From: a virus
Strand: one strand, 5' to 3'
Length of the DNA: 64,000 bases
IMG/VR virus record: IMGVR_UViG_3300030090_003378
Span: 1-64,000 of that record
Shown: piece after piece, positions 52,035-61,649 of the stretch
How the letters are laid out: the number at the start of each line of letters is the position of its first letter
How positions within the stretch are numbered: position 1 is the first letter of the stretch
The notes under the pieces: model-generated
Told to the model about the DNA's origin: nothing
Databases searched by the model: none
The model's input: the letters and a program-made list of their open reading frames with translations, nothing else
Program-made: the position numbers and the translations under genes

Positions 52035-52241
52035 ATGGTTAAGGTAACTATTCTAAACGAAACAGGACATACTGAACTAATGCTAAGTGGAAGCGAAGCA
52101 TTGGAACAGATTCTTGACCACCCTACCCATTGGGCATATATTGATGGGGAATTGGTTAGTCGAGAAAACATCAATACAGTTAACTTTGATGAGGTTAATG
52201 ATGTTGTGCTAACACACGCCATTGTCGGCGGTAATTACTGA
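52035..52241 (+). CDS. Ubiquitin-like (beta-grasp; ThiS/MoaD/SAMP-type) protein, pro-form ending GG-NY
   Basis: 68 aa; MVKVTIL N-terminal strand, YIDGELV, and C-terminal VVLTHAIVGG followed by NY. Confidence 0.65.
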   Translation: MVKVTILNETGHTELMLSGSEALEQILDHPTHWAYIDGELVSRENINTVNFDEVNDVVLTHAIVGGNY

Positions 52242-52256
52242 GTAGTTACCTAAGAC

Positions 52257-53039
52257 TTGACAGCAGTTTGCGGTCTGCTTGAACAAAACCGCAATTTTAA
52301 ATTAGAGATGATTATTATGTGGAGAAAGAAAAAAGATTTTAATGAGTTCTTAAGTATTGTAAAAGATATGCCATTCCTTCATGCAGGTAGAACACATAGA
52401 GGTTATAGAAGGTGGAATCATAGGACTCGAAGTTACGATGGTCCTGCATATGAACCTTTAAATGTAGAAACATTAATGAATTATGTTAATACTCTTGAAG
52501 ATTCGTATAAGACTTCATATCAGGTGAATGCAGAAGGTTATAATTATGACACTATTCCCACTTTAGAGGAATATAAAATAACTTGCCTAACCCAATGGAT
52601 TAGAACAAGAAACTACAATGCAACAAAAGAATTTAGAGAAACAAGAAAAACAACAGAATATTTTAAAAGGTTGGAGAATTATGAGAAGAGATGAAGATAG
52701 TGATGAAGGTGCTGATGAATGATTAAGTTAATTAAAGATTTATGGTTATTTATCAGACACGTTTTATGGCAAGCATGGAAGACACATAGACAAATTATGA
52801 AAAGTCAGCGAGCGATAAAGAAAATGGAAGATAAAGATGGTGTGTGCAATACATTTTTACTTTTCTTAGAAGAAGCAATTGCACATAACGTACACGAGGA
52901 AGAAATCAAATGGATGATTGGAACATTCCTTGATTGTTCTGATGATAAAGTTAGAGCAGAGGAATCTTGGGAAGATGTTATATCTTATGTAAAGAAGTAT
53001 AACGTTAACCCATTAGATTTAGATTACAAGTCGGGTTAG
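52257..53039 (+). CDS. Two hypothetical ORFs (52257-52694, true start probably ~52317; 52719-53039)
   Basis: ORF track; coding-like composition. Confidence 0.45.
52261..52294 (+). other. H-type pseudoknot motif, copy 2
   Basis: AGCAG/CTGCT stem with loop TTGCGGT pairing to ACCGCAA. Confidence 0.55.
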
Positions 53040-53111
53040 TCAAGTGGTCAAAGACGGAAGGCTTAAGACCTTCTCCAAAATGGTTCGCAGGTTCAAATCC
53101 TGCACCCGACA
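53030..53111 (+). tRNA. tRNA-Leu (anticodon TAA)
   Basis: Acceptor GTCGGGT/ACCCGAC, anticodon arm GAAGG-CTTAAGA-CCTTC, long variable arm, T arm GCAGG-TTCAAAT-CCTGC; CCA not encoded. Confidence 0.92.
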
Positions 53112-53203
53112 CTTATATTATTGAGATTAGTATACAAATTGTCATGCTTCTCTCCCTCTCAATAATATATTTCCTAAGCAAGAATAAAAACTGCTTAAAT
53201 TAT

Positions 53204-53277
53204 GGGTCATTGGCGCAGTTAGGTAGCGCACCGGGCTTTTAACCCGATGGTCAGGGGTTCAAATCCCCTATGACCCT
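53204..53277 (+). tRNA. tRNA-Lys (anticodon TTT)
   Basis: Acceptor GGGTCAT/ATGACCC, D arm GCGC/GCGC, anticodon loop CTTTTAA, T arm AGGGG-TTCAAAT-CCCCT. Confidence 0.92.
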
Positions 53278-53296
53278 CTTATTCAAAGGTGATAAA

Positions 53297-53740
53297 ATGA
53301 ATTATGAAGAAATTATAGAAGATTTAGAGCAACCGTATAATGAGTGGTTCTTACACGAAAAAGTGTTTAAAGGTGAATTAAAAATTGGAGGATGGAAACT
53401 ACTTCATCCTAAACCAATAAATGAACTTCATCATGAGTTTAACAAAAGTAAATTTGTTATAACTAACCCTAACTTTTATGAAGACGGTTGGATATTAGCA
53501 GAATCACGACGTTCAGTAATAATGGCATCAGGTATTAAAACAGAATTTGTATGGGACGGAAAGGTATGGACAAGTTTTTACCAACTGTTTAAAGAGTATG
53601 GACCTGAAATGTTAAATTTGTTCCCTGAATTAAATTGGAACGAAACTAAAGAATGGATTATTGTAGATAAAAAGTCGAACAAACTGTTGGCTCAATTTGA
53701 TTATTGGGACGACGCACCTACTAGAAAGGATGTGGAATGA
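53297..53740 (+). CDS. Hypothetical protein
   Basis: Start moved to MNYEE (GGTGA RBS) because the track start overlaps tRNA-Lys. Confidence 0.55.
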   Translation: MNYEEIIEDLEQPYNEWFLHEKVFKGELKIGGWKLLHPKPINELHHEFNKSKFVITNPNFYEDGWILAESRRSVIMASGIKTEFVWDGKVWTSFYQLFKEYGPEMLNLFPELNWNETKEWIIVDKKSNKLLAQFDYWDDAPTRKDVE

Positions 53741-55599
53741 TGTTAGCAAATGAAATATTAAGTGATATTACAGTGTATATGAAATATGCACGATTTATTA
53801 AAAAAGAGAACCGAAGAGAAACATGGGCTGAAATATGTATGCGTAATATGAAAATGCATATTAAAAAATACCCTCAACTCAGAGAAAAGATTGAGGATGT
53901 GTATTCTAATTTCGTAGAACCAAAGAAGGTTTTACCTTCGATGAGGTCAATGCAATTTGGTGGAAAGCCAATTGAAATTAGCCCAAACAGGATTTACAAT
54001 TGTGCATACCTGCCCATTGATAGTTACGAATCATTTCATGAATCAATGTTTTTATTATTAGGTGGAACAGGTGTAGGTTATAGTGTGCAGAAGCATCACG
54101 TTAATCAATTACCTGATATTCAAAAACCTAATCCTACAAATCGTAGGCGACATTTGGTTGGAGATTCAATTGAAGGTTGGGCTGATGCTCTTAAAGTCTT
54201 GATGAAGTCATACTTCGGCATTAACAAAACAACACCGTGGTTTGATTATTCAGATATTAGACCACAAGGAACACCACTAAAAACATCAGGTGGAAAAGCA
54301 CCCGGACCTGCACCATTAAGAGAGTGTTTAGTTAAGGTTCAGAATATGCTTGAGAACAAAATCAATGGGACTAAACTTAAACCCATTGAAGTTCACGATA
54401 TTATGTGCCATATTGCTGATGCAGTATTAGCAGGTGGAATTAGAAGGGCCGCACTCATTAGTTTGTTTAGTGCAGATGATGAAGAAATGCTTGCTTGTAA
54501 ATCAGGTTCATGGTGGGAACTAAATCCTCAACGTGGACGGGCTAATAACAGTGCAGTATTGTTGCGACATAGAATTACAAAGAAGTTCTTCATGGGTCTT
54601 TGGGAGAAGATTAAGAATAGTGGTTCAGGTGAGCCGGGTATTTACTTCTCAAATGACAAAGATTGGGGAACTAACCCTTGTTGTGAAATTGCACTAAGAC
54701 CTTATCAGTTTTGTAACTTAGTCGAGGTCAATGTTAGTGATGTGGAAAATCAAAAAGATTTGAATTCAAGAGTCGCCGCCGCATCAATGTTGGCAACGTT
54801 ACAAGCAGGTTACACAGATTTTCATTATTTACGTGAAGTTTGGAAAGAAACAACAGAAAAGGATGCATTAATTGGTGTTAGCATGACAGGTATTGCTTCA
54901 GGAAAAATATTAAAGTTAAACTTAGAAAAGGCTGCTAACTTAGTCAAAGATGTTAATGAATTAGTATCTAATGAAATAGGAATTAATAAAGCAGCAAGAA
55001 CTACTTGTGTTAAACCTGCGGGAACAACATCTTGTGTGTTAGGAACAAGTAGTGGAATTCATGCTTGGCATGATAAATACTACATTAGACGTATTAGAGT
55101 AGGTAAAGGTGAAGCAATTTACCATTATCTAAAAAATAATCATCCTGATTTAGTAGAAGATGACTACTTTTCACCACATAACACAGCAGTTATTTCTGTT
55201 CCTCAAAAAGCACCACATAGTTCTATTCTTAGAGATGAATCTGTATTCGATTTATTAAAAAGAATTAAATTTATGAATACTATGTGGGTTTCTAATGGAC
55301 ATATTGATGGACAGAACTCTCATAACGTTTCAGCGACTGTTTCTATTAAAGAACCAGAGTGGCCCGAAGTAGGTAATTGGTTGTGGGGGAACAATGAAGT
55401 GTATAATGGGATTAGTGTATTGCCCTATGACGGTGGAAGTTACAAGCAACCACCATTTGAAAGTATTAGTAAATATAAGTATGACAAAATGATAGAGAAA
55501 TTGAAGAAAATAGATTTAACAGAAGTTTTTGAAACAGATGACAACACCGATTTACAAGGTGAGTTAGCCTGTTCTGGTGGAAGTTGTGAATTAAAGTGA
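53737..55599 (+). CDS. nrdJ: Ribonucleotide reductase, class II (AdoCbl-dependent)-like
   Basis: KYAR..RRETW, YNCAY, TNPCCEI, TCVKPAGT, C-terminal CSGGSC; no beta subunit adjacent. Confidence 0.85.
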   Translation: MMLANEILSDITVYMKYARFIKKENRRETWAEICMRNMKMHIKKYPQLREKIEDVYSNFVEPKKVLPSMRSMQFGGKPIEISPNRIYNCAYLPIDSYESFHESMFLLLGGTGVGYSVQKHHVNQLPDIQKPNPTNRRRHLVGDSIEGWADALKVLMKSYFGINKTTPWFDYSDIRPQGTPLKTSGGKAPGPAPLRECLVKVQNMLENKINGTKLKPIEVHDIMCHIADAVLAGGIRRAALISLFSADDEEMLACKSGSWWELNPQRGRANNSAVLLRHRITKKFFMGLWEKIKNSGSGEPGIYFSNDKDWGTNPCCEIALRPYQFCNLVEVNVSDVENQKDLNSRVAAASMLATLQAGYTDFHYLREVWKETTEKDALIGVSMTGIASGKILKLNLEKAANLVKDVNELVSNEIGINKAARTTCVKPAGTTSCVLGTSSGIHAWHDKYYIRRIRVGKGEAIYHYLKNNHPDLVEDDYFSPHNTAVISVPQKAPHSSILRDESVFDLLKRIKFMNTMWVSNGHIDGQNSHNVSATVSIKEPEWPEVGNWLWGNNEVYNGISVLPYDGGSYKQPPFESISKYKYDKMIEKLKKIDLTEVFETDDNTDLQGELACSGGSCELK

Positions 55600-56084
55600 T
55601 TGAAATGGAAGATATAGAAAAAGAAGTATTGGGTTTAACTCAACCACAGTATGTAGTATTTAGAGTAACAAGTTTGAAAAGTAATGGTTCGGTTTGGACC
55701 AAGCAGTATGAAAGTTTAGAACAGTTAGGGGAAGTAATTACTGTTTTATTAGAAAAATTCCCCCATGTGGTTATCTCAAGGCAAGTCCTTAAGAAATCAC
55801 CTTTAGAACATTTGAAAGGAATGAGTGATTGAATGATGAGTAAACAAGAAAAAAGAGTAGAATTTAGAATAGTAGAAGATGAAGAATTGCCCGCAATTAT
55901 TATCAAGCGGGATGGTGGTTTAGAGCCAGTAATTGTGATTAACACATATCATAAAATATGGTTGTCACTACAACGCGCTACTATTCCCGGAATAACAAAC
56001 AGTTTGGCTGAAAAGTTAACCTTACTGTGCGATGGTTTCTTAGAGGAACAACTTCAATATGAAGATATGGATAGGATGGATTGA
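55596..56084 (+). CDS. Two small hypothetical ORFs (55596-55832, 55833-56084)
   Basis: Closely coupled ORFs. Confidence 0.5.
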
Positions 56085-57312
56085 AATGGTAGATTACGAT
56101 GAAGCGATGGCGAATGTAGGAGAATATATGGCTATTGGTGAACACTTAGAAGGTGATAACATTGGTGGTATGAATCCTCACGGGCCTTACAATAAAGCAC
56201 TAATGACAAGAATGACAGAATTATCAGTAGCAGATGAATGGGATGAGGCTAAGAAAGAGTGGAGGATTACAGGTAACGTTTGGTATATTCCTTTTCATCA
56301 AACACATGGGCATGAAAGATTACCTCAAGTTCATCAAGATAAACACCCAAGAGAATGTCTATGTGGTCATCGTATTGCATGGCACTTTGAAGTAGAGAAT
56401 ACTCTCAATGGTGAGTTAGAAGTATTGGGTAGTGAACACGTTACTAATTGGATGATTATTCGCCACATGATTGAAGAATGTGGAATCCCTGCTGATGCTA
56501 TCACTGAAGAAAAGATTGCTGAGTGGGTTAAACAAGCAGTTAAGTCTATGAAGGCTGATTGGTGGTGGAATGAATATGGTGAAGAGTTTGAAGAACTATT
56601 CAATGAAGTTAAGGAACTTGACCTCCGAGTTAATGTAAGAAAGAAGGGTCGTTATTGGGATAGTAAAACCCGTGGGTATGAAGATAAGTGGGTTATTGCT
56701 AAAACAAAGAAAGGTTCACTTGGAAGAATGGCTTCTATTGTTTGGCGTTGGAATCATCCTGATAATGCTAATGCTCAAATTAAAACACGAGGCTACCCTA
56801 ATGATAAACTTTGGCGAGATGTTCAACTTCTTTATGCTCTCTACGAGGAAAAGAAAGAACTCATTGATGAAGTAGATAATGCGTATGCAGAACGTGTAGA
56901 ACGTAGTGGACAACGATTTGCTGAACAACAACGTCGAGCAGAAATTCAAAGAATTGCTACGGATGAACGTAATACTCAAATGAAGATTCAAGATGATGAA
57001 GCAGTAACAGCCGCCTGTGAATATTATGACCTTCCTTTCTTGGAAGAGGCAAATGCAAATAATGACTGGGAAAGAAAGTTTATTAGGGATGTGCGACTTA
57101 AGTTGATTAATCAAGTCACACTGACACCTAACCAAATTACTCGATGGATTCAGATTTCTAATCCAGAAGTAGTTCAAGTAATCCCAGCAACATATAAACA
57201 GGTTCGATATATTAAAAAGTTAGGTGGAGAACCACAAGAAGGAATTACAAAACAACAAGCAAGTGATATGATTGGAAAATTATTGGAGGCAAAAAGAAAT
57301 GGGAACGTATAG
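56059..57312 (+). CDS. Hypothetical protein with CxCGH Zn-binding motif
   Basis: ECLCGHRI...LGSEHV; C-terminal ATYKQVRYIKKLG...TKQQASDMI module. Confidence 0.55.
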   Translation: MKIWIGWIEMVDYDEAMANVGEYMAIGEHLEGDNIGGMNPHGPYNKALMTRMTELSVADEWDEAKKEWRITGNVWYIPFHQTHGHERLPQVHQDKHPRECLCGHRIAWHFEVENTLNGELEVLGSEHVTNWMIIRHMIEECGIPADAITEEKIAEWVKQAVKSMKADWWWNEYGEEFEELFNEVKELDLRVNVRKKGRYWDSKTRGYEDKWVIAKTKKGSLGRMASIVWRWNHPDNANAQIKTRGYPNDKLWRDVQLLYALYEEKKELIDEVDNAYAERVERSGQRFAEQQRRAEIQRIATDERNTQMKIQDDEAVTAACEYYDLPFLEEANANNDWERKFIRDVRLKLINQVTLTPNQITRWIQISNPEVVQVIPATYKQVRYIKKLGGEPQEGITKQQASDMIGKLLEAKRNGNV

Positions 57313-58558
57313 AATAGATATAATGGCATCAGATGACACAAGAGGAATACAAGCGTCTACTCATATATCAAGTCGAAGATTATTAGGTGGACGAACTATT
57401 CAAATTAGAGCAGGTCGCGGCCATATCTCAGGTAAAGAACCTACGATTATGGCTATCGTCGATGCTCTAACTAAAAGGATGGGAATAAAAAAGATTGTTA
57501 ATGATACCAATAATGCTAAACAAAGTATTCTACTAACTATTGGTAAACCTGAGTTTGAAGTAGTATTTAGAAAGAATGGTAATAGATATAGTTTAAATGG
57601 ACAACAAGCAACTTTAGATATTTTAGAAAAAGCATTAGCACGATGTATCTTAAGGTCTTGTTATCTTGATGATTCAGAAGAGTCATATGACCAATTAGAA
57701 GAATATCTATACAGATGTATTACATTGCCTGAGAATATAACATACGTAATTGAAAATAAATTACCATATATCTTTTACGAAAGGAATGAAACGAATATTA
57801 CGAAGCATGAGTGCAGGATGAATGTGAAACAAATTGCTGATTTTGAATTTGCCATAGAGGTAAGTGGTGGTATTTGGGGAACAATTGGTCTGAAGGACTT
57901 GAACACATTTGTCGATACATACCTATACAATAAACGAAGAGGTCAATGGGTTCAAATTTCCCCTCAAGAATTATATTTCAAGACTGTTGGAACAAGACCA
58001 AGTGAAGCACAAGTTAAGGTAATGAAGGAATTTCTGAAACAGAATCGAAAGCAAGACATTGTTGAGAAGAGGGCTATGGAATTGTTTGACGATATGGTTA
58101 GAGATTATGAAACTATCAAAACAGGTATGCGGTTAAGACCCGGAACTACTACTGGCGATAAAATCAAAGTTATGTATGTCCGAGGTAAAGTTGCAGATTG
58201 GATGATTGTAGATAATTGTTCAAAGTCGGGAACACAAGATGTATCAACGTATATTTTAAAAGATGGTGATAATGATGGCCGTGGGGGTTCAGGTTGGAAT
58301 TCAAATATGGCTACTGAAGAGAAAACTATGTCGAAGAAATTGTATTGGTCCGGCCCAATTTGTATTGATAATATGCAAAGTGGAGCAAGTGTAGGTGACC
58401 AATTCGCTTCAAGAGCATTTGCTTGCATGAACGATGAAATGACAATTGGTTTGGTATCAACAATTAGAAACTATGTATCTCCGACAATTTGGAACCATCC
58501 GGAAAGCAAGAAAATTGAAGGACATAAGGTAAGGTTAGATTGGGATGCCATGCCTTAA
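57272..58558 (+). CDS. Unknown protein with C-terminal GPICID-GDQ domain (candidate E2-like Cys acceptor)
   Basis: MYVRGK...WSGPICIDN...GDQFASRAFACMND; context next to E1 and JAB. The function is an inference. Confidence 0.35.
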   Translation: MENYWRQKEMGTYRIDIMASDDTRGIQASTHISSRRLLGGRTIQIRAGRGHISGKEPTIMAIVDALTKRMGIKKIVNDTNNAKQSILLTIGKPEFEVVFRKNGNRYSLNGQQATLDILEKALARCILRSCYLDDSEESYDQLEEYLYRCITLPENITYVIENKLPYIFYERNETNITKHECRMNVKQIADFEFAIEVSGGIWGTIGLKDLNTFVDTYLYNKRRGQWVQISPQELYFKTVGTRPSEAQVKVMKEFLKQNRKQDIVEKRAMELFDDMVRDYETIKTGMRLRPGTTTGDKIKVMYVRGKVADWMIVDNCSKSGTQDVSTYILKDGDNDGRGGSGWNSNMATEEKTMSKKLYWSGPICIDNMQSGASVGDQFASRAFACMNDEMTIGLVSTIRNYVSPTIWNHPESKKIEGHKVRLDWDAMP

Positions 58559-59174
58559 TTGCCAAAGTAAGGACTTAAAGATGGATAGGAAATTATCCCT
58601 GCCAATTTGTATGAGTTGTGGTTATATTAACGCTTCTCGCATTCGAGAAACGCAAAATAGTTCCTACATTTCAATGCATTCGAGTGATTTTGTATCGCTT
58701 GATATACTGTTAAGTGAATTTAAGATAGTAGACTATAAGGAGAATGTTCTTAGTAACTTTAAAACATTGAAAAAAGATAGAGTGTTTGAAGGTTATAGTA
58801 TAGATGAACAAATAGTGTCCACAACGTATTATACGTTACAAGCGAATAATGAATTAGTATATGTTAGAGCCTATTGTAAGTTTATGGGCGTCAATGTTAA
58901 AAGAGTATTTAATTTAAGTAAGAAGGTTGCTAAGTATTTCCTTAAACATGGTGTTTTTATTATGAGTGATGTATCTAAATATTTAGATAAAGTAGATAAC
59001 AAAAATGTGGTCCAGAAAGAAATAGAGAACTTTGAAGGAACTCTCACAAGAGCAATAACAGCAGGAATATTTTATGAGAACAGCGAACTCACACAAAAGA
59101 AAACGTGTGAACTATTTGGTATCTCGCTACCAAGACTAAAGCGAGCATTGAAAATAATAAGAAAAGGTGAATAA
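58545..59174 (+). CDS. Transcription factor TFIIB/TFB-like protein
   Basis: N-terminal Zn ribbon CLNC...CMSCG; helical core; C-terminal HTH LTQKKTCELFGISLPRL resembling the TFB BRE-binding helix. Confidence 0.7.
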   Translation: MPCLNCQSKDLKMDRKLSLPICMSCGYINASRIRETQNSSYISMHSSDFVSLDILLSEFKIVDYKENVLSNFKTLKKDRVFEGYSIDEQIVSTTYYTLQANNELVYVRAYCKFMGVNVKRVFNLSKKVAKYFLKHGVFIMSDVSKYLDKVDNKNVVQKEIENFEGTLTRAITAGIFYENSELTQKKTCELFGISLPRLKRALKIIRKGE

Positions 59175-59739
59175 AATGAAAAAGAGAAAAATAATGATAA
59201 TCGGAACGGGTGGAATTGGGTCATACCTAATCCCACTATTGAATAAGACAGGACTATATGATATTACAATCTATGACCCTGATGTTGTAGAGAGTAAGAA
59301 CATTTCATATCAGAACTTTGAAGATGCCCATGTTGGTATGTTAAAGGTTGATGCTATGGACGCACGATATGAAATCAAAAAGACATATGGTTACCCTGTA
59401 TTGACAGCAAAGCAACTTGGTGGATATGACCTTGTTGTTTGTTGTGCAGATAATTTAGATATTCGACGCACAATGTATAATGATAAAGGTTTGGCATGGT
59501 TGGATTTGAGAGCGCAGGGCCGCAATGGAATTCTTGTATCTTTCTTAGAAAACCCTGACCTTTATGGTGAATTAACAAGTGGACCCGATGGTTCTTTTTC
59601 TTGTCAAGGTGATGCATGGGATGGAGGAAATACTAATCTTCATTATATGCACGTTGCAGTAGCAGGTTTAGGTGCTGAATGGATTCAACGTTGGTTTAAC
59701 GAAGAAGAAGTATTTAAGCACCGAATGATTGCAGGGTGA
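59167..59739 (+). CDS. ThiF/MoeB/E1-family activating enzyme
   Basis: IIGTGGIGS, YDPDVVESKNISYQ, DLVVCCADN; candidate catalytic Cys in FSCQG. Confidence 0.85.
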   Translation: MNKMKKRKIMIIGTGGIGSYLIPLLNKTGLYDITIYDPDVVESKNISYQNFEDAHVGMLKVDAMDARYEIKKTYGYPVLTAKQLGGYDLVVCCADNLDIRRTMYNDKGLAWLDLRAQGRNGILVSFLENPDLYGELTSGPDGSFSCQGDAWDGGNTNLHYMHVAVAGLGAEWIQRWFNEEEVFKHRMIAG

Positions 59740-60271
59740 TTATATGAATATATTTTACTTAGACCATGATGTGCAAAAGTGTGCAGAAATGCATTGTGAT
59801 AAACACGTTGTTAAGATGATTTTAGAATATGCACAGTTGTTATGCACAGCGCATCATGCTAAAGATACATACATATGTCAAGAAGAATTTGAAATTAAAA
59901 GGGTAAATGAAGATAAACTTGGTATGTTATACAAGTCTACTCATTTAATGCACCCTTCATCTGTTTGGGCAAGAGAATCATTACAACATTACAATTGGTT
60001 GTATAGGTTATTTGCTGCATTATGTGATGAATACACTCATCGTTATGGTAAAGTGCATAAGACAGATTCTAAACTAAGAGAACTATTATCAGTTCCACCT
60101 TCAAGGTTAGAAGATAATGGTTGGAAACAACCTACACAGGCTATGCCTATGGTTTACAAAAAGCAAGATAGTGTCGAAGCGTATAGGCATTATTATTGTA
60201 GAGATAAGTTGAGAAATATACAAGTGCGCTACACAAAAAGAGAAAAACCTAATTGGTTGGTGAAGAAATGA
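59729..60271 (+). CDS. Pyrimidine-dimer DNA glycosylase (DenV/endonuclease V-like family)
   Basis: MNIFYLD...HCDKHVVKMILEYAQLL...YKSTHLMHPS..W...EYTHRYGKVH. Confidence 0.75.
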   Translation: MQGDYMNIFYLDHDVQKCAEMHCDKHVVKMILEYAQLLCTAHHAKDTYICQEEFEIKRVNEDKLGMLYKSTHLMHPSSVWARESLQHYNWLYRLFAALCDEYTHRYGKVHKTDSKLRELLSVPPSRLEDNGWKQPTQAMPMVYKKQDSVEAYRHYYCRDKLRNIQVRYTKREKPNWLVKK

Positions 60272-60589
60272 AAGGAAAGAGAGATTATAGAGGAAATGAA
60301 GTAGGAATTCCGGGCGGTGCTTGGCAAGTCGGGAGAACAGAAAGACATAAGAAATTACAACAGTTTTATAAAACACACGAATGGAAAGGATATAAAGTAG
60401 GATGGGTTAAGAAGGAAAGTGATGCAGATGGCAAGAAGAATTGAACAAAGAAAAACAACACATAAGACAGGAAAACCGATGGTAGGTTGGTGGACCGGAA
60501 AAAAAGTATGTAAATGTAACAGTCCTAATTGTGTTAGGCATGGTGGGGCCGCTTGTGTAAGGCGAGCAAATAGAATTAAGGTGATTTAG

Positions 60590-61066
60590 ATGGATAAAAT
60601 AGTAATGGATGCATATGCATCAGATATGAGTAATGTTAGCGATGAAGAATGGACAGGAATGAAACTGAAGATTTTCCAATCATATGAAGGAAACTTTGAC
60701 CAACAATCTTTCCTCGATACTATTTGGGATGTATCAGTAAATGATTTGCCCGGACTTGAAGTATCAGTGGTTGTTGATAGAAATGACCGACTGTTTATTA
60801 GTAAAGGAACAGGTTCATTTGTAGATTATAAGAAAGAAAGTGTTGAAGGTATGTCAATCCCTCTAAAGTGTTGGATTCATACTCACCCATTTGGTGCGGC
60901 ATATTTTAGTGGAACGGATTGGTATACAATTAACACACAACGACCCATTCTAAATCAAGCAACCGTATTGGGTAATCAACAAAACATGAAGTGGGTTAAG
61001 AAGGCTGACAATACAGAATATCTTTCCCGAACTGAATTTAGAACAATGGAAGATGAGGAAGAATGA
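60590..61066 (+). CDS. JAB/MPN+ (JAMM) metalloprotease
   Basis: Upstream Glu (LEVSVV) plus WIHTHPFGAAYFSGTD = HxH-x7-S-x2-D. Confidence 0.85.
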   Translation: MDKIVMDAYASDMSNVSDEEWTGMKLKIFQSYEGNFDQQSFLDTIWDVSVNDLPGLEVSVVVDRNDRLFISKGTGSFVDYKKESVEGMSIPLKCWIHTHPFGAAYFSGTDWYTINTQRPILNQATVLGNQQNMKWVKKADNTEYLSRTEFRTMEDEEE

Positions 61067-61425
61067 AACACGTTAGATTTCCTGTTGTTACGCCGACACT
61101 AATTAAGTGTCCTATTTGTAATGGTAAGGGATGTAACGTATGTAATTGGACAGGTGAATATGAAATGGAAAGTGAAGCATACATAGAAGTGCAACAACCA
61201 TTGGTTGTAAAGTATTTAGTAGATAATCAATCTACACTTAGTAGTGAAATTTCAAGGTTATATGGGGCGCACCCTGAAATAACTACTGAGAAAGTAATAA
61301 AGAATTATGAGATAGTTAGAATAGATTCCTTAAGTGGTTCTGTTTGGATTGCCTATAATCTTAAAGAAGTTGAAGCCCCAAGATATTTCTATAAATTAGA
61401 GGAAGTGGAAAAGTGGTTAGCGTAA
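61063..61425 (+). CDS. Zn-finger protein (CxxCxGxG, DnaJ-type)
   Basis: CPICNGKGCNVCNWTG. Confidence 0.6.
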   Translation: MKHVRFPVVTPTLIKCPICNGKGCNVCNWTGEYEMESEAYIEVQQPLVVKYLVDNQSTLSSEISRLYGAHPEITTEKVIKNYEIVRIDSLSGSVWIAYNLKEVEAPRYFYKLEEVEKWLA

Positions 61426-61649
61426 GAGAAATTAGAAGAGTGTTTAAAAGTGCCGGTATTGCTCGTCAGTTACCTGATGACGCATTAGAAGCATTTCAAG
61501 ATAGAGCAGAAAAGTTATTAGTGCTGTTTGCACAACGATGTGATGAGAAAGCAGGTGATAGTAATTCACGCTTGACAAAAGAACAAGTAGCATTAGCATT
61601 TTTGCAGGTAACAGAAGATGAAGAAGAGTTTGGTGATTGGAATGAATGA
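61413..61649 (+). CDS. Archaeal-type histone-fold protein with acidic tail
   Basis: IRRVFKSAG-ARQLPDDA...RLTKEQVALA aligns by eye with the HMfB pattern (IGRIIKDAG-ERVSDDA...TIKAEDIELA). Confidence 0.7.
   Translation: MVSVREIRRVFKSAGIARQLPDDALEAFQDRAEKLLVLFAQRCDEKAGDSNSRLTKEQVALAFLQVTEDEEEFGDWNE

Follow-up and report, generated by a model that had tools for sequence, protein, structure and literature searches.

The DNA considered here, called the window throughout, is a 64,000-nucleotide stretch of IMG/VR virus record IMGVR_UViG_3300030090_003378 (positions 1 to 64,000), and forms the first 64 kb of this complete, 94,082-bp record. Between positions 52,035 and 61,066, its plus strand encodes four proteins that resemble the parts of a ubiquitin-like (Ubl) conjugation system: a 68-residue Ubl precursor (the tag, 52035..52241), a 428-residue E2-like protein (57272..58558, read from TTG 57272), a compact E1/ThiF-type adenylation domain of 190 residues (59167..59739) and a JAB/JAMM metalloprotease of 158 residues (60590..61066). 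An earlier note on this DNA had listed these open reading frames and proposed that the virus carries its own protein-tagging pathway. All four frames were found in the positions listed there, on the plus strand, and their motifs were re-read from the DNA.

Two arms can be told apart in the genome. On the minus-strand arm (1-45 kb) lie genes for an SU10/HK97-type capsid protein, prohead protease, portal, terminase and tail tube. The plus-strand arm (46-81 kb), in which the four genes lie, encodes a class II ribonucleotide reductase (RNR), ATP-dependent DNA ligase, replication factor C, family B DNA polymerase, a PD-(D/E)XK nuclease and an IMPDH-family enzyme. Related genomes are marine viral contigs of 86-96 kb. 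From its gene content and size, compared with published work (PMC5434244, PMC10160649), we read the virus as a magrovirus, a tailed virus of Marine Group II archaea.

The tag ends in AIVGG-NY-stop, with the di-glycine at 52227-52232 and the two-residue NY tail at 52233-52238. The product had been described as beta-grasp-like, and this was borne out as a predicted fold, both by an AlphaFold2 model and by its structural neighbours. The model, built on the family alignment, had a pLDDT (predicted local distance difference test) of 81 and showed the bb-a-bb-(a)-b order of elements, followed by a disordered C-terminal tail. The structures nearest to it were TtuB, MoaD, ThiS, SAMP2 and ubiquitin. 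Among the Foldseek matches listed, almost all were ubiquitin-family or other beta-grasp proteins, with the best TM-scores for TtuB (0.52) and ThiS (0.48); E-values were weak, as expected for a protein of 68 residues. At the level of sequence, the tag was unmatched in Pfam, PHROG and PADLOC and gave no profile match to the ThiS, MoaD or ubiquitin families, and a search of PDB sequences with the family profile returned chance matches only, with no Ubl among them. The family is nonetheless large: its profile collected 585 database clusters, nearly all of 66-80 residues, on marine contigs of up to ~100 kb.

Conservation within this family is concentrated before the tail. Across 73 aligned members, A62, V64, G65 and G66 were invariant and I63 was conserved in at least 90%; the other invariant residues were N8, T10, G11, H12, T13, Q25, H29, P30, T31, W33 and L59. 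The earlier note had made conservation of GG in homologues a test of its proposal, and GG was indeed fixed, as part of AIVGG, in the 120 relatives listed, while the residues beyond it varied: CY in 44, NY in 20 and SC in 10, with SY, RY, NL, DY and others among the rest. The first tail residue was not fixed as Cys, as N, S, R, D, H and others occur at this position. Tail length varied too, with some relatives having one residue, some having acidic extensions and one having no tail. A fixed GG followed by a tail variable in both sequence and length is a hallmark of a trimmed precursor. Such processing is known experimentally for the BilA Ubls, in which a conserved Gly is followed by up to nine non-conserved residues and the JAB protein BilC cuts after the Gly (PMC10557695).

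Two further features of the tag were recorded. It has an invariant, His/Thr-rich surface made up of NxTGHT and HPTHW. It is also poor in lysine, with a content of 1.0% against a genome background of 8.0%; 48 of the 120 relatives have no Lys, and most of the others have a single one, at position 3. Sulfur carriers are likewise acidic and Lys-poor. Lysine depletion was considered as a sign of a conjugated modifier and dropped, as it does not discriminate a modifier from a sulfur carrier.

The JAB protein carries HTHPFGAAYFSGTD at 60878-60919, and with Glu57 (60758-60760) this gives the pattern E..HxH-x7-S-xx-D. E57, H97, H99, S107 and D110 were invariant in seven homologues, in agreement with the intact JAMM motif claimed previously. 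The match to Pfam Prok-JAB was weak (E 0.022; 15 bits, under the cut-off of 25). The family profile reached the JAMM domains of AMSH-LP and AMSH, with E-values of 0.003-0.007, over the motif region. Identity as a RadC-type JAB was considered and rejected, with no RadC match in the profile search.

Assignment of the compact E1 was firmer, and the earlier description of a compact ThiF/E1 was confirmed by a Pfam ThiF match with an E-value of 3.5e-16 (59.5 bits, cut-off 28.1). Translation likely begins at ATG 59176. The protein contains GTGGIGS (59203-59223), DN (59449-59454; D95-N96) and Cys146 (59602-59604), and the GxGGxGS motif, D95-N96 and C146 were invariant in eight homologues, over which mean column identity was 80%; D95 is the Mg-binding Asp. 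Against the PDB, the E1 profile matched the ThiF-type entry 9egc (6e-9), followed by MccB, Uba4, MoeB, UBA5 and NAE, the NEDD8 E1. The best PADLOC match was to CBASS E1-E2 at 2.6e-12, that is, to the E1 half of CBASS Cap2. With a mean identity of 57% across loci, the E1 was more conserved than the other three proteins, which argues for activity. Two E1 peptide patterns, searched in 185,579 species genomes, were found in only three contigs of bacterial metagenome-assembled genomes (MAGs) and in none of the archaeal genomes. These contigs, two from Maricaulis sp. (L090, L092) and one from Altibacter sp. (L091), are most likely misbinned viral contigs.

The fourth protein, for which the likely true start is ATG 57299, consists of an N-terminal part of ~255 residues and a C-terminal UBC (E2/UEV)-like domain (residues 255-428; 58034..58555). 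The domain holds a candidate catalytic Cys364 (58361-58363) in GPICIDN, within SGPICIDN, which we take to resemble the E2 signature GxICLD. In 71 sequences of the family, C364, D366, D376, Q377, R381, N387, D388 and T397 were invariant, and G361, P362, I363, I365 and N367 were at least 90% conserved. An AlphaFold2 model of the protein had a pLDDT of 85.7. From residue 258 onward, a helix leads into a meander of four strands, after which come a variable loop, a short strand whose last residue is Cys364 and four helices. Cys364 is part of the loop that connects the beta-meander to the following helix (374-386), which begins 10 residues later. An unbiased structural search of 48,161 chains with this model returned E2, UEV (ubiquitin E2 variant) or RWD folds in at least 36 of 50 rows, over residues 258-426. 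A second look, with an aligner independent of Foldseek, returned E2, UEV or RWD folds over the same residues in all of the top 50 rows. UEV domains scored equally to active E2s in these searches. In neither search did the N-terminal 255 residues give a convincing structural match.

The previous suggestion that 57272-58558 could encode a divergent E2 therefore held at the level of the fold and failed by every sequence method. The family is closed and virus-only. One database contains 158 clusters of it, none with a name in Pfam, PADLOC or PHROG, and a HMMER search of 1.84 billion representatives recovered only the same family (163 clusters, same architecture). Pfam gave no match to the protein or to its 71 relatives, PADLOC and PHROGs gave no match to the protein, the UQ_con hidden Markov model (HMM) found nothing in the genome, and the domain profile had no match among PDB sequences. 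Comparison of the domain with nine bacterial Prok-E2_A domains using hhalign gave a probability of 0.3%, and no HPN motif was seen in the protein. Other structure-based resources added little: a feature search of the ESM Atlas with the domain returned uninformative small phage proteins, below 0.9; BFVD held three unnamed homologues only; and a whole-model Foldseek search of the PDB was uninformative. As all sequence tests failed, any kinship with known E2s is visible in the fold only. Judged on the predicted model, the 428-residue protein is E2-like by fold and motif, and stands outside the known E2 families.

Conservation of the four genes as a set was examined in related viruses. A tag-profile scan of IMG/VR gave 215 confirmed tag-encoding stretches, of which 80 loci were fetched; together with seven loci anchored on the E1, this made 87. 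Searches with HMMs of the four proteins found all four in 76 of the 87 loci, and the other 11 loci stop short of the genes they lack; co-occurrence in related viruses had been named in the earlier note as a test of its proposal. In every one of the 76 loci, the order was tag, E2-like, E1 and JAB on one strand. Spacing was far less strict, at 439-6481 nt from tag to E2-like gene, 496-2320 nt from E2-like gene to E1 and -105 to 1746 nt from E1 to JAB; many of the relatives have the tag gene only a short distance upstream of the E2-like gene. In large records anchored on the family B DNA polymerase (47-61% identity), the E2-like gene was present in 10 of 10 and the tag in nine of 10. In the record lacking the tag, only 2.5 kb separate the E2-like gene from the contig start, so that the tag was probably cut off by the contig end.

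Other genes of the region shift position relative to the four. The class II RNR gene (window 53737-55599) lies between the tag and E2-like genes in 41 loci. The conserved genes at 56059-57312 (417 residues) and 55833-56084 (83 residues), neither of which has a Pfam match, lie between the tag and E2-like genes in this genome and just upstream of the tag in 51 of the 76 relatives, with the 56059-57312 gene found downstream of the tag in 10. The gene at 59729-60271 occupies three different intervals relative to the tagging genes. The shifted 56059-57312 and 55833-56084 genes indicate rearrangement around a fixed four-gene order. This fixed order, and the 585 relatives of the tag with their invariant AIVGG, place the observation far beyond chance.

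As far as sequence and predicted structure go, these data support the proposal that the virus carries its own protein-tagging pathway, and none of the checks that could be run in silico, on the beta-grasp fold, GG conservation and co-occurrence, spoke against it. We consider it probable, with moderate confidence, that the four genes form a virus-owned Ubl conjugation cascade resembling bacterial BilABCD, in which the tag is matured by the JAB protein, activated by the E1 and carried by the E2-like protein. The 68-residue beta-grasp protein would be translated in precursor form, the short variable tail masking its di-glycine. The JAMM protease would trim this tail, exposing Gly66, and would probably also reverse conjugates. 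The compact ThiF-type E1 would then adenylate the exposed C-terminus, and the activated tag would move to Cys364 of the UBC-fold domain, either by way of a thioester on the E1 or through attack of the Cys on the adenylate itself. From Cys364 it would be transferred to target proteins, probably chosen by the N-terminal 255 residues of the E2-like protein. Each of these chemical steps, and the existence of protein targets, we infer from the predicted folds, the motifs, the precursor-type tails and the strict co-occurrence.

A number of observations weigh against a conjugation cascade. Several concern the E1. It begins at the first Rossmann strand, with no N-terminal helix carrying an Arg finger, and in its motif KN[LI]xYQNF an invariant Tyr replaces the canonical phosphate-binding Arg of NLxRQ. 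It also lacks the CxxC zinc motifs, with SFSC standing in place of one CxxC and the second pair absent. As for the loop, its only conserved Cys, C146 in GPDGSFSCQGDAWDG, falls at a zinc-ligand position of MccB in the alignment and does not line up with any known catalytic Cys. In structure, the tag looks most like a sulfur carrier, the fold scores of the E2-like domain are modest, and neither a target nor an E3 was found. Finally, some of the co-occurrence of the four genes could stem from synteny of a conserved replication module as a whole.

The likeness of the tag to sulfur carriers, and the frequent Cys in its tails, would also suit a sulfur-carrier system of the QbsCDE, CysO-Mec or TtuABC type, in which the JAB protein unmasks GG, the E1 adenylates it and the tag serves as a thiocarboxylate sulfur donor. 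Acceptors could possibly be tRNA 2-thiouridine or a thio-modified nucleotide or cofactor, with host enzymes supplying and accepting sulfur and the 428-residue protein acting as acceptor or transferase. However, a search of the complete 94,082-bp genome at E-values up to 1 brought up none of the sulfur partners looked for (rhodanese, cysteine desulfurase, PP-loop thiolase, MoaE and ThiG), while its positive controls were matched in 12-14 of 14 control genomes. A sub-threshold ThiG match proved to be the IMPDH-family TIM barrel. The earlier note had remarked on the lack of thiamine and molybdopterin biosynthesis genes in the window, and none were found in the whole genome either. The first tail residue, moreover, is not fixed as Cys, and the conserved partner has a predicted UBC fold, which is foreign to classical sulfur relays (PMC10557695). 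Together, the E2-like partner and the missing sulfur partners argue against a plain sulfur relay, which we regard as unlikely; it keeps some weight because host enzymes could serve in place of viral ones.

Alternatively, the viral tag, E1 and JAB protein could act as decoys or erasers against host SAMP/Ubl conjugation or Ubl immunity, with the 428-residue protein an inactive, UEV-like binder. Cap3 reverses the products of Cap2, and offers a model for a JAB protein that strips host conjugates. The equal scores of UEV domains and active E2s in the fold searches agree with such a role, as does an E1 without several canonical catalytic features, and since bacterial Ubl systems are antiviral, counter-measures are plausible (PMC10557695). 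Yet an eraser alone would have no need of a tag so strictly conserved, with its invariant GG and its precursor tail, or of an invariant Cys-x-Asp in a UBC-like domain, and the conservation of the E1, higher than that of the other three proteins, is in keeping with an active enzyme; we give host interference only a small chance. It is equally improbable that the four belong to no common pathway, each being a core gene of a syntenic replication module in its own right and the 428-residue protein being, for example, a replication or transcription factor with an alpha/beta fold that resembles UBC. A beta-grasp GG protein, an E1 and a JAMM protein make up a functional triad that recurs in all domains of life (PMC1779556). 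Other genes of the module shuffle while these four keep their order, and the fold matches of the 428-residue protein fall almost exclusively in one superfamily.

Between the E2-like and E1 genes lies a gene for a transcription factor B (TFB)-like Zn-ribbon/helix-turn-helix (HTH) protein (58545..59174, plus strand), which overlaps the former by 14 nt and the latter by 8 nt. Gene overlaps are common throughout the plus-strand arm, so we treat this one as a pointer, which does not count as evidence that the gene works together with its neighbours. In at least 65 of the 76 loci, the largest open reading frame between the E2-like and E1 genes encodes 200-340 residues with an N-terminal CxxC..CxxC ribbon. 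One homologue (L001:8193-9014) matched the TFIIB Zn ribbon at 1.9e-5 and also a C-terminal HTH; the match for the copy in the window was weak (E 0.086). The earlier note had TFB and histone genes interleaved with the enzymes; both labels rest on weak matches. The small protein encoded downstream of JAB, at 61413-61649, gave no Histone match, while its homologue (L003:12204-12428) matched Pfam Histone at an E-value of 0.0032 (18 bits, under the cut-off of 26); the product was found downstream of JAB in only 13 of the 76 loci (tblastn E<=1e-4).

Two other genes of the arm gave family matches. The 180-residue product of 59729-60271 matched phrog_624 ('DNA binding protein') with an E-value of 2.9e-57, and weakly Pfam Pyr_excise (E 3.4e-4), the pyrimidine-dimer glycosylase family. 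Beyond the window, at genome positions 71208-72266 (L089:8208-9266), lies a full-length IMPDH/GMP-reductase-family gene (Pfam IMPDH, E 1.3e-99), directly upstream of the virus's family B DNA polymerase gene. This gene and the class II RNR indicate control of nucleotide pools.

If the four proteins do conjugate the tag, chromatin or transcription proteins as its targets are a matter of speculation, for which the sole relevant fact is the TFB-like gene embedded in most relatives. More broadly, it may be, and we put this forward tentatively, that all magroviruses carry a self-contained Ubl cascade, with a minimal E1 and an E2 family not yet filed, and use it to tag host or viral proteins during infection, the transcription machinery being one possible target. 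Such a cascade would give bacterial Bil defence a viral counterpart, and would be a means by which viruses spread E2-type conjugation among archaea. Complete Ubl-E1-E2-protease sets are known in eukaryotes, in a few archaea and in bacterial anti-phage islands, and the prokaryotic ones have been cast as weapons of the host against viruses. Magroviruses rank high in abundance among the viruses that infect ocean archaea, and in the present case an entire lineage of abundant marine archaeal viruses keeps a Ubl-E1-E2-like-protease set among its core genes. Should it conjugate, prokaryotic viruses, like eukaryotic ones, would manipulate cells by ubiquitin-type tagging with machinery of their own. 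It would also provide a very small E1 (~190 residues) and a new E2-fold family for mechanistic work, and bring viruses, as a vehicle, into scenarios of how E2-based conjugation arose and spread.

An incomplete survey of the magrovirus and archaeal tailed-virus literature found no mention of ThiF, JAB or ubiquitin, which is no proof of novelty, and nothing relevant was found in the literature on viruses of Poseidoniales under ubiquitin-like proteins. Among known systems, the sulfur-carrier sets that include a JAMM protein (QbsC/D/E, CysO/MoeZ/Mec+), as well as ThiS-ThiF, MoaD-MoeB and TtuB-TtuC, likewise pair a ThiS/MoaD-like tag with a ThiF-type E1. In QbsE, two residues cover the GG until a JAMM enzyme cleaves them off. 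The viral genome differs from these sets in having no sulfur donor or acceptor enzyme, and in having an E2-fold partner. The archaeal SAMP/UbaA/HvJAMM1 system of Haloferax shares with the virus a small beta-grasp GG tag, a MoeB-type E1, a JAMM protein and the archaeal setting; SAMPs have dual potential, for sulfur transfer and for conjugation, and the Haloferax TATA-binding protein is a SAMP substrate that is routed to the proteasome (PMC2948915, PMC4895103, PMC4443979). SAMPylation, however, proceeds without an E2 and UbaA is a full-length MoeB-type enzyme, whereas the virus has a UBC-fold partner and a precursor tag.

Closest in its parts is BilABCD of Types I and II, which consists of the Ubl BilA, the E2 BilB, the JAB deubiquitinase BilC and the E1 BilD (PMC10557695). 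In both, the Ubl has a conserved Gly and a short non-conserved tail, whose removal by the JAB protein has been shown for Bil and is proposed here for the virus; both lack a RING or HECT E3, and in both the genes are clustered on one strand. The comparison is one of parts and layout, and homology to BilB, BilC or BilD is not part of it. In contrast to Bil, the viral genes are core genes of a lytic-type tailed archaeal virus and not of a bacterial defence island, and TFB-like and other genes are interleaved among them. The viral E1, of ~190 residues, consists of one adenylation domain only, lacking both an inactive domain and a Cys-bearing insertion, and has Tyr in place of the canonical Arg. 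The E2-like domain forms the C-terminus of a 428-residue protein whose closed family has no tie to known E2s in sequence, and the tag is of ThiS/MoaD size and resembles a sulfur carrier.

Prokaryotic operons that combine Ubl, E1, E2 and JAB genes, and Ubl-JAB pairs in phage tail regions, were described by Iyer et al. in 2006 (PMC1779556), in contexts different from the present one. A viral parallel is offered by the Nidhogg viruses of Asgard archaea, archaeal viruses with ThiF/E1-like genes that the authors link to ubiquitin-type modification, noting that E1-like genes had not previously been described in archaeal viruses (bioRxiv 10.1101/2021.07.29.454249). Only E1-like genes are reported from those viruses, and these are proposed to hijack the ubiquitin, E2 and other parts of the host, whereas the virus described here brings all four parts itself.

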